Of a stretch of DNA of 64,000 bases, positions 8,637 through 11,505 are shown piece by piece; the first letter of the stretch is position 1; every line of letters starts with the position of its first letter. The notes below the pieces were generated by a model. It made no database searches. It had not been told where the DNA came from and saw only the letters and a program-made list of their open reading frames with translations. The position numbers and the translations under genes were made by a program. The stretch is from Candidatus Limimorpha sp. Its GTDB lineage: Bacteria > Bacteroidota > Bacteroidia > Bacteroidales > F082. The stretch lies in the NCBI GenBank assembly GCA_041842465.1, contig JBGYXG010000040.1:1788-65787 (forward strand). Reading direction: 5' to 3'.

Positions 8637-10343
8637 ATGTCGGATTTTTTAGAGTTCCGGGATGCACAATGCAGAGATTGCTACAAATGCTTGCGCGAGT
8701 GTCCGGTAAAAGCAATTGATGTGAAAAACCATCAGGCGAAGATTATTGAAGATCGCTGTATTTTGTGCGGTCACTGCACTTTGGCATGTCCGCAGAACGC
8801 CAAAGTCGTCCATAGCGAATTGGACGATGTGAAACGTCTGTTGGATAGCGGTCAAAAAGTGATCGCAAGTGTAGCACCTTCTTTCATTTCAAGTTTTGGT
8901 CTGAAGGATTTCACCATTTTCAAGATCGCGCTGGCAAAGCTGGGTTTCGCCGATGCTGAAGAGACAGCGGTCGGCGCTCAGGCCGTTGTGAAGGAATACA
9001 AGCGCTTGCTGGAAACGGGTGAGTTTGAGAATTTCATCACTTCGTCATGTCCGGCAGCTTGTCGCATGATCCAGGAATACTATCCGAAAGCGTTGAAATA
9101 TCTTGCTCCCGTCGATTCGCCCATGGTGGCTCATGCCAAGCTCATCCGCAAACGTGATCCGGAAGCGAAAATCGTATTCATTGGACCATGTATTGCAAAA
9201 AAACGCGAGGCAGTTGAGTGTACGCTCATCGAAAATGTGCTGACATTTGAAGATTTGCAGCTTTTCTTTAAAGAACGCGGTATCAAGCTCGAAGAGATTT
9301 CCGAATTGCACCTTGACCAAAAAGGTGGAGCTGCCAATCTGGCAAAATCGTTCCCCATCAACCACGGTATTATCAATTCGTTCGACATCTTGCCCAAAGG
9401 TTACGAATACATTTCAGTAGATGGTCCGGAACGTTGTAGCGAAGCCCTTGAAAACATCGAGTTTTTGTCGCATGTGTTCTTGGAAATCAATATTTGCGAA
9501 AATGCCTGTGTGGCAGGTCCGTGTTCGCTTCAAGTGAAAGGCGGCAGCGTCAAGGCCATGTCCGAAATTCGGAAATATGTGCGCCGTGAAAGAGAGCTGT
9601 TCCCCTCGTTAGATGACACCCCGTTGGAAGTGAATCTGTTTGCTTCCTATCCACGTATCCGCAGCCATAGCATTGTTGCCCCCGAACGCGACATTGAGGC
9701 GATATTGCACCGGACGGGCAAGATGACCCGTTCCGATGAACTCAACTGTGGCGCCTGCGGCTACAGCACTTGTCGCGACAAGGCATGGGCGGTGTACAAT
9801 GGATATGCCGACGTGGAGATTTGCCTGCCCTATATGCGGCAGCGTGCGGAATCGCTTTCGTATGAAATCATCCAGAAAAGCCAGGAAGGCGTCATCGTTC
9901 TCGATGCCGACATGAACATCGTGGAAGTCAACAACAAGGCCAAAGAGCTGCTCGCCATCGATGCGGTGGATGTGAAAGGTCGTCCGGCCCTCGACTATTT
10001 CAAGCCTATCGATTTTATGAACGCATACAGCCAGAAACGTCATGTTATGGTCAAGGATATGTTCATTCCTTCCACGATGAAGCATGTGGACATTTCCATC
10101 AATTATCTTGAAGGACAGGACATGCTGTTTGGCGTTCTCAAGGATGTCACCGACATCATCCATTATGACAAGGAAATCATGAAGGTCAAGATGGAAACGC
10201 TGGCAACCACAGATGAAGTGATTAAGAAACAGATGCGCGTGGCTCAGGAAATCGCATCGCTTTTGGGCGAAACGACGGCCGAGACAAAAGTGGCGCTGCT
10301 GAAACTGAAGAAAACCTTGACATCGGATCAAAATGGACAATAA
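8637..10343 (+). CDS. hydS: sensory-type [FeFe]-hydrogenase-like protein with C-terminal PAS domain (HydS-like)
   Basis: Two CxxCxxCxxxCP motifs. The H-domain motifs are divergent: [26 protein letters not shown]. There is an extra [9 protein letters not shown]..C cluster motif, followed by a PAS-like segment ([24 protein letters not shown]). Confidence 0.85.
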   Translation: [568 protein letters not shown]

Positions 10344-11505
10344 GCTGGAGCAGTGCATCGAGTTTGGCTATACCGCGCTGAATCATGTCGGTGAGGAGCT
10401 CTGCGGCGACAATGTCGCTTGCAGTGTCAATGGCGATTGCACCACCTTGGTGCTCGCCGATGGCTTGGGAAGCGGCGTGAAAGCCAATATCCTTTCCATG
10501 CTGACATCCAAGATCCTTTGCACCATGGCGTCCAACGACATTGACGTGCACGAATGTGTGGAGACCGTCATCCAGACTTTGCCCGTGTGTAAAGAAAGAG
10601 GCGTGGCCTATTCCACGTTTTCATTGATCCATATTAATAATGCGGGAGAGGGTTATCTTTTCGAGTTCGACAATCCTCGGGCTATACTGTATCATCACGG
10701 GAAATGCTGCGACATGGAGCGCGAACTGTTGCATGTGTATGATAAAAAGGTGTTCAAGACAGACCTCCATCTCGACGAGGATGATATTTTGTTAGTGATG
10801 TCGGATGGTACCATACATGCCGGTATCGGTCAAATATTGAATTTCGGTTGGGACAGACTGCAAATCATGCAGCATCTCGACGAAAATATCCGTCCGGGCA
10901 TGTCGGCACGCGCCGTGGCCTGTCTGCTCGATACCGCCTGCAACGACTTGTATCTTGACAAACCCGGCGACGACACCACGGTGGCTGCCATCAAGCTGCG
11001 CCGACGCATTGATGTCAACATCATGGTGGGGCCACCCGTTGATAAGGAAAAGGATGATTACTACGTGGAGCGATTCTTGGAAGGCGACTCGAAGAAAATC
11101 GTGTGCGGCGGCACCAGTTCCATCATCGTGGCACGTTATCTCGGTACCGAGGTGAAAACCAGCTTTGATTTTCCCGACCGTGATGTGCCGCCCATCGGTT
11201 TCATCAAGGGAATCGACTTGGCTACTGAGGGCGTGCTTACTTTGAGGCGTCTGTTGGAAATGTCGGATAAATACCTGTCTATCACTGATTTGACACCGAA
11301 GGTGTTTACGAAAAAGGATGGAGCTTCCTTGCTTGCCGATTTTCTGTTTGAAAGAGCTACGCATATCCGGTTTTTCGTTGGGCAGAGTGTCAATGCGGCG
11401 CACCAAGGGCTGCCCATCGACACTACGATGAAATTAAAGCTGATAGAAACGCTTTCTAAGAATTTAATAAAAATGGGGAAAAAAGTGGAAATAAATTACA
11501 ATTGA
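10333..11505 (+). CDS. PP2C/SpoIIE-family protein phosphatase with an unassigned C-terminal domain
   Basis: Motifs CGDN, LADGLGSGVKANI, MSDG and GDDTTVAAIKL. The start overlaps the hydS stop by 11 nt. Confidence 0.85.
   Translation: MDNKLEQCIEFGYTALNHVGEELCGDNVACSVNGDCTTLVLADGLGSGVKANILSMLTSKILCTMASNDIDVHECVETVIQTLPVCKERGVAYSTFSLIHINNAGEGYLFEFDNPRAILYHHGKCCDMERELLHVYDKKVFKTDLHLDEDDILLVMSDGTIHAGIGQILNFGWDRLQIMQHLDENIRPGMSARAVACLLDTACNDLYLDKPGDDTTVAAIKLRRRIDVNIMVGPPVDKEKDDYYVERFLEGDSKKIVCGGTSSIIVARYLGTEVKTSFDFPDRDVPPIGFIKGIDLATEGVLTLRRLLEMSDKYLSITDLTPKVFTKKDGASLLADFLFERATHIRFFVGQSVNAAHQGLPIDTTMKLKLIETLSKNLIKMGKKVEINYN

Follow-up and report, generated by a model that had tools for sequence, protein, structure and literature searches.

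The locus described here is, with good confidence, a Bacteroidales copy of the phosphatase-linked, putatively H2-sensing [FeFe]-hydrogenase module of the hfsABC/HydS type (M2f, group C). It lies in a window of 64 kb, by which we mean the whole stretch of DNA that was analysed; its closest species representative is Candidatus Limimorpha sp., and identical gene calls for the locus are found in public assemblies. The genes of a small [2Fe-2S] protein, the hydrogenase HydS and a two-domain PP2C protein stand back to back (Table 1). This three-gene module is already named and widespread, at least 591 species genomes encoding a relative of the PP2C protein, and the locus is an ordinary gut-Bacteroidales copy of it. 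Two things are new: the phosphatase ends in a conserved alpha/beta domain that is unclassified, and HydS has at its proton-relay position a serine, which is rare there.

Table 1. Features of the locus, with positions in the 64-kb window.
Feature	Position	Strand	Basis
Rex-type redox-sensing repressor; neighbour, candidate regulator or target	6067..6735	+	Pfam Put_DNA-bind_N + CoA_binding
Iron-containing alcohol dehydrogenase (405 aa), immediately 5' of the module	6905..8122	+	Pfam Fe-ADH + ADH_Fe_C
Small thioredoxin-like [2Fe-2S] protein, 96 aa	8333..8623	+	Pfam 2Fe-2S_thioredx; Cys pattern Cx4Cx31Cx3C
HydS, sensor-type [FeFe]-hydrogenase, M2f, 568 aa	8637..10343	+	Pfam domains; R. albus HydS similarity
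HydS N-terminal 2x[4Fe-4S] ferredoxin domain, aa 9-55	8661..8801	+	Fer4 family matches (dicluster); two CxxCxxCxxxCP motifs
HydS H-domain, aa 73-295	8853..9521	+	Fe_hyd_lg_C E 3e-42; site census, 74 orthologues
HydS C-terminal Cx2Cx4Cx16C [4Fe-4S] motif, aa 369-398	9741..9830	+	PF04060 FeS
HydS PAS domain, Pfam core aa 410-471	9864..10049	+	PAS, PAS_4, PAS_8 matches
HydS conserved C-terminal tail, about aa 515-561	10179..10319	+	Strong conservation with R. albus HydS
PP2C/SpoIIE-type Ser/Thr phosphatase domain of HfsC-like protein, aa 1-224	10333..11004	+	Pfam SpoIIE; Foldseek
Unclassified C-terminal alpha/beta domain of phosphatase protein, aa 226-390	11008..11505	+	Conservation; AF2
nfnA, NADH-dependent ferredoxin:NADP oxidoreductase-like	11531-12364	+	Pfam DHODB_Fe-S_bind, FAD_binding_6
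nfnB, NADH-dependent ferredoxin:NADP oxidoreductase-like	12365-13774	+	Pfam Fer4_20, Pyr_redox_2
hydC, bifurcating-type group A [FeFe]-hydrogenase	13819-14298	+	Pfam 2Fe-2S_thioredx
hydB, bifurcating-type group A [FeFe]-hydrogenase	14301-16178	+	Pfam Complex1_51K, NADH_4Fe-4S
hydA, bifurcating-type group A [FeFe]-hydrogenase	16182-17873	+	Fe_hyd_lg_C E 6.9e-90 with Fe_hyd_SSU
Intrinsic-terminator-like hairpin	18224..18262	+	18-bp stem, 11 GC pairs, T-run

An earlier note on this DNA had taken the ORF at 8637-10343 for a sensor-type [FeFe]-hydrogenase as distinct from the usual enzymes of group A or B, and this reading finds support in the Pfam architecture of the translation and in its similarity to HydS of Ruminococcus albus, with which it shares 38% identity (E 6e-131) and the same domain order over the full length. 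Identity to the HydA encoded in the same window is 28% and covers the N-terminal cluster and H-domain only; the matches to all solved group A enzymes lie at E of about 1e-15, and the protein falls under the cut-offs of the NCBIfam group A and B1 models. The Cx2Cx4Cx16C pattern, a hallmark of M2e and M2f enzymes (PMC8163306), is fitted exactly by the CGACGYSTC...C motif with C371, C374, C379 and C396, all four of which are invariant in the 74 HydS orthologues of our site census. The PAS domain is recognised by the PAS (E 1.6e-6) and PAS_4 families barely over the Pfam cut-offs and by PAS_8 barely under them, and its fold probably reaches to about residue 510. A PAS domain placed after the C-terminal cluster is the distinguishing mark of M2f/group C as opposed to M2e/group D. 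The conserved tail that ends the protein reads to us as helical, and may be where HydS contacts the phosphatase.

The cysteines that hold the H-cluster (equivalents of C300, C355, C499 and C503) are present in HydS and invariant in 74/74 orthologues. Three other positions are substituted: C299 to Ser, M353 to Gly and M497 to Asn. The motifs quoted earlier for HydS, HydA and the phosphatase are all found in the translations, HydA reading TSCCPAW, MPCTAKKSE and ACPDGCINGGGQP for comparison. Glycine stands at the M353 position of every one of the 74 orthologues, and the C299 position holds Cys in 41, Ala in 30 and Ser in 3 of them; since 41/74 retain the cysteine, the loss of C299 varies within the family. 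Replacements of both C299 and M353 were tied to low hydrogenase activity (PMC8163306). The same work allows a comparison with TmHydS from Thermotoga maritima (group C) and TamHydS from Thermoanaerobacter mathranii (group D, M2e): these enzymes and HydS of the window have in common the N-terminal 2x[4Fe-4S] domain, an H-domain without C299 and the Cx2Cx4Cx16C motif, and M353 is Gly in both TmHydS and the window protein (PMC8163306). At the M497 position TmHydS has Ser, whereas HydS of the window has Asn.

The arrangement of the genes places the module among enzymes of fermentative redox metabolism. The stop codon of hydS (TAA, 10341-10343) lies behind the ATG of the phosphatase gene at 10333, so the 11-nt overlap reported earlier is correct. 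The hairpin downstream of hydA is the sole strong terminator-like one in 5000-19500, and no comparable hairpin was found between 8333 and 18133; the transcription unit probably ends there, and hydS is probably co-transcribed with the catalytic redox enzymes. An iron-containing alcohol dehydrogenase occupies the same position, 5' of the module, in the Bacteroidales loci L008-L010, and AdhE takes its place in many Clostridia loci. Rex is encoded at most 7 genes from the module in 19/75 related loci; a search with the Firmicutes consensus found no Rex operator above chance.

Among the nearest described parallels of this layout is the cluster on plasmid pRUMAL01 of R. albus 7, which runs Rex, AdhE, phosphotransferase, two 2Fe-2S proteins, HydS, SpoIIE (389 aa) and HydA2. 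Its phosphatase is 44% identical to that of the window and of equal length, the C-terminal domain included, its small 2Fe-2S protein WP_013483410 is 40% identical to the 96-aa protein, its hydS and phosphatase genes overlap by 8 nt where those of the window overlap by 11, and in both cases Rex and an alcohol dehydrogenase lie upstream. The two clusters differ in that R. albus encodes an APH/RIO-like kinase and has its small 2Fe-2S gene in duplicate, whereas the window has no such kinase gene and a single small 2Fe-2S gene; the alcohol dehydrogenase is AdhE in the former and a 405-aa Fe-ADH in the latter, and the downstream partner is HydA2 in the former and nfnAB-hydCBA in the latter. In R. 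albus HydS the CC pair is moreover retained (SSCCHS) and the M497 position is taken by Ser, in contrast to SSC and Asn in the window.

Both features of an hfsABC-type module are present in the window, namely a small 2Fe-2S_thioredx gene immediately 5' of hydS and a Ser/Thr phosphatase gene overlapping hydS. In Thermoanaerobacterium saccharolyticum and T. thermosaccharolyticum the hfsABCD operon, on which experiments were done, encodes a small protein, a PAS-containing [FeFe]-hydrogenase and a Ser phosphatase in the same order, and the four described genes include no kinase, as in the window (PMC11837493); this likeness is one of gene order taken from published descriptions, and the HfsA counterpart is assigned by gene position. 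There hfsC is followed by hfsD, a ferredoxin-linked catalytic hydrogenase, whereas the module of the window is followed by nfnAB and hydCBA. Genetics ties hfsABCD to the regulation of alcohol dehydrogenase, hydABCD and nfnAB (PMC5707799, PMC11837493). By its gene linkage HydS of the window is also a candidate member of HydDB group C3, listed as "phosphatase-linked (putative)", where hydrogenases of group C are encoded with a Ser/Thr phosphatase and are proposed to be H2 sensors (PMC5037454). HydDB itself assigns subgroups by a sequence-similarity network and k-NN.

One could argue that HydS is mainly a slow catalytic hydrogenase, which together with the small [2Fe-2S] protein makes or consumes H2 and so feeds or drains Nfn and HydABC, the phosphatase regulating HydS. 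The ligands of the H-cluster and both N-terminal clusters are indeed intact, hydS probably shares its transcript with catalytic redox enzymes, the relatives TmHydS and TamHydS turn over H2 at low rates (PMC8163306), and when first described, the hfs cluster was taken for T. saccharolyticum's main hydrogenase (PMC11837493). However, the proton-relay cysteine and M353 are both replaced, the PAS domain and a practically obligatory phosphatase partner (73/75 loci) are features of signalling, and the deletion of hfsB in Thermoanaerobacterium raises hydrogenase activity, HfsD being the catalytic enzyme (PMC5707799, PMC11837493). We regard a mainly catalytic role as improbable and keep to the reading of HydS as a putative sensor.

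The survey on which the family picture is based comprised 75 related loci, 14 of them from Bacteroidales. The gene of HydS lies immediately 5' of the phosphatase gene in 73/75 and a small 2Fe-2S gene is present in 65/75, so that the invariant unit of the survey consists of the small 2Fe-2S protein, HydS and the two-domain PP2C protein. A kinase adjoins the module in 20/75 loci (27%) and in none of the 14 Bacteroidales loci. Just one kinase recurs, an APH/RIO-like protein of about 250 aa, to which type the R. albus "Ser/Thr kinase" (WP_013483408) also belongs. This protein travels with AdhE, and in 18 of the 20 kinase-bearing loci its gene lies immediately 5' of that of the small 2Fe-2S protein. 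The earlier note's statement that a Ser/Thr kinase gene and a phosphatase gene usually accompany such hydrogenases is borne out in this sample as far as the phosphatase goes, and not as regards the kinase. Conserved neighbours were found to the extent that 10/15 of the closest non-Bacteroidales relatives carry this candidate kinase, whereas no conserved substrate gene was found. The earlier note had seen an undescribed signalling output in the kinase-less layout, and this is not supported in view of these counts, of hfsABCD and of a group C3 that has already been named (PMC11837493, PMC5037454): modules of this kind mostly have no kinase beside them, and its absence here does not amount to a new signalling route.

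The observation behind that proposal was itself accurate. Pfam scans of about 65 ORFs of about 85 aa upward in the 64-kb window gave no match to HATPase_c, Pkinase (Hanks kinase), STAS or Response_reg, the ORFs at 1290-3281 (S1-repeat protein) and 3705-5090 (SCFA transporter) being covered by the precomputed Pfam matches in L001. A profile built from the R. albus kinase and 18 linked kinases, whose true members score 260-450 bits, found no orthologue of the HydS-linked kinase in the six-frame translation of the window; its best match reached 19.6 bits (33393-34355). This region overlaps ORF 33483-34358, an APH/choline-kinase-family phosphotransferase, which because of that score we rejected as an orthologue of the linked kinases. 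The opposing kinase of the family is most likely the APH/RIO-like protein that a quarter of genomes encode immediately 5' of the module, though this linked "kinase" could instead act on a small molecule. In Bacteroidales this protein is unlinked, and must have its gene elsewhere, be replaced or be absent.

The phosphatase itself looks active, judging by its metal-binding motifs and predicted fold. Pfam recognises SpoIIE in it (aa 34-222, E 1.5e-12), and the protein has ADGLGSG, MSDG and DDTTV and keeps all metal-binding Asp motifs (GD, DG.G.G, SDG, DD.T). D26, D43-G44, G159 and D214 do not vary across 69 diverse homologues, and the conservation of S157, D158 and D213 is at least 90%. The best Foldseek matches of the domain are SpoIIE, RsbX and RsbU (E down to 4.5e-13; probability 1.00 for SpoIIE and RsbX), with which it has the PP2C fold and metal-binding motifs in common. 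In comparison to these proteins, the phosphatase of the window is without an N-terminal regulatory domain and has the unclassified alpha/beta domain at its C-terminus instead.

RsbX, SpoIIE and RsbU, the closest relatives of the PP2C domain in both sequence and fold, all dephosphorylate STAS proteins. It could thus be that the module belongs to a classical partner-switching system of the RsbU/RsbV/RsbW type, with the STAS antagonist and a HATPase_c kinase encoded elsewhere in the genome. However, a gene for either partner is neither in the window nor recurring in the 13 Bacteroidales loci whose neighbours were scanned for these Pfam families, and the kinase linked to the module in 20/75 loci is APH/RIO-like and not HATPase_c. 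Partner switching of this kind is very improbable here.

The C-terminal domain is carried by 865 clusters at 50% identity, the phosphatase in this family always bears it, and among full-length proteins it ends PP2C proteins of about 375-405 aa. The AF2 model of the domain has a pLDDT of 86.6. Searches against Pfam, NCBIfam and the PDB sequences gave no match, and Foldseek against the PDB gave nothing significant (best E 0.013, TM <0.5), the weak neighbours being MgsA, UbiX and the macro domain. In the 69-sequence alignment A1 residues E299 and T303 are invariant and D295, T298, N354 and K383 are at least 90% conserved; T261 is invariant only in the 60-sequence set A2, which is less diverse than A1.

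These properties may be read in favour of an output that, in Bacteroidales, is novel or independent of a dedicated kinase. The domain would then be the real output or input of the phosphatase, binding a phosphorylated metabolite or nucleotide or serving as an intramolecular phospho-acceptor, or PP2C would act directly on Rex, on alcohol dehydrogenase or on a subunit of Nfn or of a hydrogenase; Rex and the subunits of Nfn and HydABC had been proposed in the earlier note. The domain is ubiquitous in the family, is rich in conserved polar residues and resembles no known family, and its weak fold neighbours bind phosphorylated ligands. No kinase, STAS or response-regulator gene accompanies the module in the window, no linked kinase occurs in the Bacteroidales loci, no signalling family recurs among 126 neighbours in 13 Bacteroidales loci, and the shifts of ADH activity in hfs mutants are not fully accounted for by transcript levels (PMC5707799). 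Against this, close Clostridia relatives with 62-70% PP2C identity have the linked kinase adjoining the module, and therefore the ancestral system probably uses it. Moreover, the 64-kb window is silent on the other roughly 97% of the genome, the ligand-binding fold matches are not significant (E at or above 0.013, TM <0.5), and nothing favours any specific substrate. An output of this kind is, in our judgement, unlikely. A more specific version, in which the Bacteroidales sensor-phosphatase pair was uncoupled from the AdhE-kinase pair of Clostridia and the C-terminal domain is a new ligand-binding or phospho-acceptor domain by which H2 status acts directly, with no dedicated kinase in between, on Rex or a metabolic enzyme, is a speculation to which we give somewhat less credence still.

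For the putative sensor module as such the following course of events may be proposed. The binding or oxidation of H2 at the modified H-cluster would alter the state of HydS, which the PAS domain and the C-terminal tail would relay to the bound PP2C protein. The activity of PP2C would in turn set the phosphorylation level of some Ser/Thr phosphoprotein, and this protein would tune the expression or activity of the fermentative redox neighbours (alcohol dehydrogenase, Nfn and HydABC), possibly via Rex. The deletion of hfsB increases adhE expression and ethanol yield, a phenotype that needs hfsC/D (PMC5707799), and no other transcription unit of R. albus responds to H2 as strongly as the HydS cluster (PMC6776011). 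However, the C-terminal cluster of a related group D enzyme stays unreduced under H2 (PMC13104023), and the redox-relay step is therefore doubtful. Reviews describe the signal transduction mechanism of putative sensory hydrogenases as unknown (PMC11376134), and the phospho-substrate is unknown for every family member (PMC11376134, PMC13104023); the question of the substrate is thus general to the whole family and not peculiar to this locus.

The way in which [FeFe]-type H2 sensors transmit their signal is acknowledged to be an open question, and a partner or substrate has been shown for no group C or D enzyme. As a typical member of the family, the locus by itself gives no new angle on it. The survey nevertheless sharpens the problem, for it points to the proteins for co-purification and to the domain to study. 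In abundant gut and rumen Bacteroidales the module is wired directly to nfnAB-hydABC, and this bears on how H2 and ethanol are balanced in gut fermentation.

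Judged by its sequence, HydS, the sensor-type [FeFe]-hydrogenase of the window, shows the M2f architecture by which group C is defined and which, unlike the M2e form of group D, includes a PAS domain (PMC8163306): an N-terminal 2x[4Fe-4S] domain is followed by the H-domain, an additional cysteine motif and a PAS domain. The additional motif reported in the earlier note is real and reads exactly Cx2Cx4Cx16C. Likewise, every motif quoted there from HydS, from HydA (the catalytic hydrogenase of the window) and from the phosphatase is present in the translations, and the overlap of the HydS and phosphatase genes is indeed 11 nt (HydS stop at 10341-10343, phosphatase start at 10333). 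The same gene calls are found in public assemblies of the same organism. A full-length alignment of HydS with the HydS of Ruminococcus albus 7 shows 38% identity (E 6e-131) and extends through the C-terminal cluster and the PAS domain into a C-terminal tail that is highly conserved. Identity to HydA is 28% and is confined to the N-terminal cluster and the H-domain, every solved group A structure is matched at an E-value of about 1e-15, and HydS stays under the NCBIfam cut-offs of the group A and B1 models.

The phosphatase encoded directly after HydS has its PP2C domain in the N-terminal 224 aa, for which the best PDB sequence matches are RsbX and SpoIIE. The AF2 model of the protein (mean pLDDT 85.8) gives a Foldseek probability of 1.00 for SpoIIE, a Sphaerobacter Ser/Thr phosphatase, the RsbU domain of Rv1364c and RsbX. 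The PP2C does not look catalytically dead, since its metal-binding motifs are conserved across an alignment of 69 homologues with 33-65% identity to the window phosphatase: D26, D43-G44, G159 and D214 are invariant, and conservation is at least 90% at S157, D158 and D213. Together with the architecture of HydS and its similarity to the R. albus protein, this supports the view that the locus couples a sensor-type hydrogenase to a PP2C that appears to be active. The identical phosphatase is found in several Bacteroidales MAG assemblies, close homologues carry Bacteroidales MAG protein names, and the closest GTDB species representative is a Candidatus Limimorpha sp. (94% identity). The whole family is far wider, with more than 8000 sequences and at least 591 species-representative genomes that carry a relative, among them Bacteroidales, many Clostridia, Treponema, Erysipelotrichaceae and others.

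The active site of HydS was compared among 74 orthologues from related loci. The four H-cluster cysteines and the four cysteines of the C-terminal cluster are invariant, the equivalent of M353 is Gly in 74 of 74, and the equivalent of M497 is Ser in 40, Asn in 33 and His in one. At the proton-relay position, equivalent to C299, Cys is found in 41 proteins, Ala in 30 and Ser in 3; R. albus HydS retains the CC pair, and the 16 Bacteroidales proteins have Ala (15) or Ser (1). Thus loss of the relay Cys is common, and its replacement by Ser, as in the window HydS, is rare.

Features of the locus and of the remainder of the window (aa, residues of the encoded protein)
Feature	Position	Strand	Basis or remark
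Rex	6067-6735	+	Pfam
Iron alcohol dehydrogenase	6905-8122	+	Pfam
Thioredoxin-like [2Fe-2S] protein, 96 aa	8333-8623	+	Pfam
HydS, 568 aa	8637-10343	+	Pfam
HydS 2x[4Fe-4S] ferredoxin domain	aa 9-55		Pfam
HydS [FeFe]-hydrogenase H-domain	aa 73-295		Pfam, E 3e-42
HydS Fe-S motif PF04060	aa 369-398		Pfam
HydS PAS domain	aa 410-471		Pfam
SpoIIE/PP2C protein (phosphatase), 390 aa	10333-11505	+	Pfam
Phosphatase second domain, C-terminal alpha/beta	aa 226-390 (11008-11505)	+	AF2 model, HMMER
nfnA, nfnB	11531-13774	+	Pfam
hydC, hydB, hydA	13819-17873	+	Pfam
85-aa ORF	17876-18133	+	directly 3' of hydA
Terminator-like hairpin	18224-18262		18-bp stem and T-run
Cobalamin riboswitch	20440-20622	+	114 bits
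TonB-dependent receptor ORF	20613-22550		
Second iron-containing alcohol dehydrogenase, 388 aa	22744-23910	+	
Fumarase/aspartase-type lyase	25476-26903		
Restriction-modification methylase, TaqI/Eco57I-type	30771-32384		
Acyl_transf_3 gene	32390-33382		
APH/choline-kinase-family ORF, 291 aa	33483-34358	+	
Fe-S assembly cluster	34398-36521	-	FeS_assembly_P, SufE, SufS-like class V aminotransferase
Secreted-looking ORF, at least 998 aa	61007-64000	+	runs past the window end

The module formed by the small [2Fe-2S] protein, HydS and the phosphatase is probably co-transcribed with nfnAB and hydCBA, because the genes between 8333 and 17873 overlap or are separated by gaps of 0-45 nt and the sole strong terminator-like hairpin within 5000-19500 lies after hydA and a conserved 85-aa ORF. 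The same arrangement is present in the Limimorpha representative (L008), and hydCBA also adjoins the module in three further loci (L039, L050 and L079). The 85-aa ORF has no family match and is also called in L001 and L002, two public assemblies of the same organism. In L001 hydB (13969-15847) is called in two pieces of 131 aa and 448 aa, compared to the 625-aa gene at 14301-16178 of the window; the strains may differ here, or the split may come from a frameshift or assembly error. A search for the Firmicutes Rex operator consensus TTGTGAAN6TTCACAA with up to 3 mismatches gave 8 matches against 5.7 expected, which does not exceed chance, and none of them is in the promoter regions of the locus. 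A sigma-70 promoter scan, a model ill-suited to Bacteroidota, gave matches no better than shuffles, and the Rfam scan gave no match in the locus itself. About 5 kb downstream of the hydrogenase operon the window carries a second iron-containing alcohol dehydrogenase gene, and a cobalamin riboswitch stands immediately upstream of a TonB-dependent receptor ORF. An Fe-S assembly cluster lies about 17 kb from the hydrogenase genes, and none of the scanned window ORFs was recognised as a hydE/F/G maturase gene. The ORF at the end of the window has Peptidase_C13 and right-handed beta-helix matches.

The claim that the 64 kb hold no kinase, STAS protein or response regulator stands: in Pfam scans of the window, none of about 65 ORFs covering it matched HATPase_c, Pkinase, STAS or Response_reg, and an HMM of the HydS-linked kinases, built from the R. 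albus kinase and 18 linked kinases, was negative. One could argue that the sole kinase-fold protein of the window, the APH/choline-kinase-family ORF, is the missing partner. Its score with this HMM, the best in the window, is 19.6 bits compared to 260-450 bits for members, thus it was rejected and the window has no orthologue of the HydS-linked kinase; the ORF adjoins an Acyl_transf_3 gene and a restriction-modification methylase gene. A kinase fused to the phosphatase would also have overturned the claim, and we therefore considered the C-terminal 166 aa of this protein as an RsbW-like kinase or STAS domain. This possibility was ruled out, as the region has no Pfam or NCBIfam match, also when 45 diverse members were scanned with Pfam at an E cut-off relaxed to 1, no PDB sequence is matched by its profile, and Foldseek found no significant PDB match to the model (best E 0.013, TM below 0.5).

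Modelled alone, the C-terminal domain is a confident three-layer alpha/beta fold (AF2, pLDDT 86.6), whose non-significant Foldseek neighbours are methylglyoxal synthase (MgsA), UbiX and macro domains. HMMER detected it in 865 clusters (50% identity) across the whole library; where the protein is full-length, it is a PP2C of about 375-405 aa with this domain at its C-terminal end. The 69-sequence alignment has invariant E299 and T303, with D295, T298, N354 and K383 at least 90% conserved; T261 of the GGT motif is invariant solely in a less diverse set of 60 sequences. These conserved polar residues suggest a binding or catalytic site.

The locus on plasmid pRUMAL01 of R. albus 7 does hold a kinase: in the RefSeq annotation the order is LysR, Rex, AdhE, a 249-aa 'phosphotransferase', two small 2Fe-2S proteins, HydS, SpoIIE (389 aa) and HydA2. 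Known in the literature as a 'Ser/Thr kinase' (PMC5707799), this phosphotransferase is APH/RIO-like by Pfam. We surveyed 80 loci of GTDB species representatives, the best 80 matches to the window phosphatase, 75 of them with an intact phosphatase gene; the resulting proportions apply to the nearer relatives of this phosphatase, not to all group C enzymes. HydS is directly upstream of the phosphatase in 73/75 loci, the small 2Fe-2S gene is present in 65/75, a HydA2-type hydrogenase is nearby in 60/75, and Rex lies within 7 genes in 19/75. The linked kinase, a protein of about 250 aa that is APH/RIO-like and neither a HATPase_c nor a Hanks kinase, occurs in 20/61 non-Bacteroidales loci (for example L007, at 9046-9795, L016, L020, L023-L027, L031, L033 and L034) and in 0/14 Bacteroidales loci. 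Of the 15 closest relatives outside the Bacteroidales (PP2C identity 56-70%), 10 have it. Where present, its gene immediately precedes that of the small 2Fe-2S protein in 18 of the 20 loci and immediately follows AdhE in 14, and this sandwiched position is a hint that the kinase and AdhE are functionally linked. Among 126 neighbouring genes without another assignment, taken from 13 Bacteroidales loci, Pfam revealed no recurrent signalling family. In several Bacteroidales loci (L019, L021 and L030) a pyruvate phosphate dikinase gene (about 890-940 aa) is directly upstream of the module, and fumarase/aspartase-type lyase genes recur near it, with a counterpart in the window.

Stand-alone trios also exist, with unrelated flanking genes and no kinase within 10 kb. 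Nor is a kinase described for the hfsABCD operon, which has been studied genetically and encodes a small protein, a hydrogenase with a PAS domain, a Ser phosphatase and a catalytic hydrogenase (PMC11837493). HydDB already names group C3 'phosphatase-linked (putative)' (PMC5037454). Therefore, lack of a linked kinase is the more common state of a known module and does not set the window apart, and the proposal of an undescribed H2-signalling output particular to this locus is unsupported.

What is established is the domain content of HydS and of the phosphatase, the obligatory pairing of their genes and the presence of intact catalytic motifs. From these, together with transcript data from R. 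albus (PMC6776011) and Thermoanaerobacterium genetics (PMC5707799, PMC11837493), we infer a mechanism in which HydS would report H2 or an H2-dependent redox state, and its PAS domain and conserved C-terminal tail would modulate the bound PP2C. The PP2C would then set the phosphorylation state of some protein, which may govern the expression or activity of alcohol dehydrogenase, Nfn and hydrogenase. Reviews describe the signal mechanism as unknown (PMC11376134), and work on a group D enzyme speaks against a simple redox relay via the C-terminal cluster (PMC13104023). Where it is linked, the APH/RIO-like protein is most likely the opposing kinase. Because its gene is tightly paired with AdhE, the candidate substrates include AdhE, or the alcohol dehydrogenase, in addition to Rex; this fits the observation that in hfs mutants ADH activity changes more than the transcripts do (PMC5707799).

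Worth keeping from this locus are the phosphatase C-terminal domain without a family match, the clean taxonomic split in kinase linkage and the rarity of Ser at the proton-relay position. The window locus adds a new Bacteroidales example to a module that is already known and very common, and the question of the phospho-substrate is common to the whole family rather than particular to this locus.
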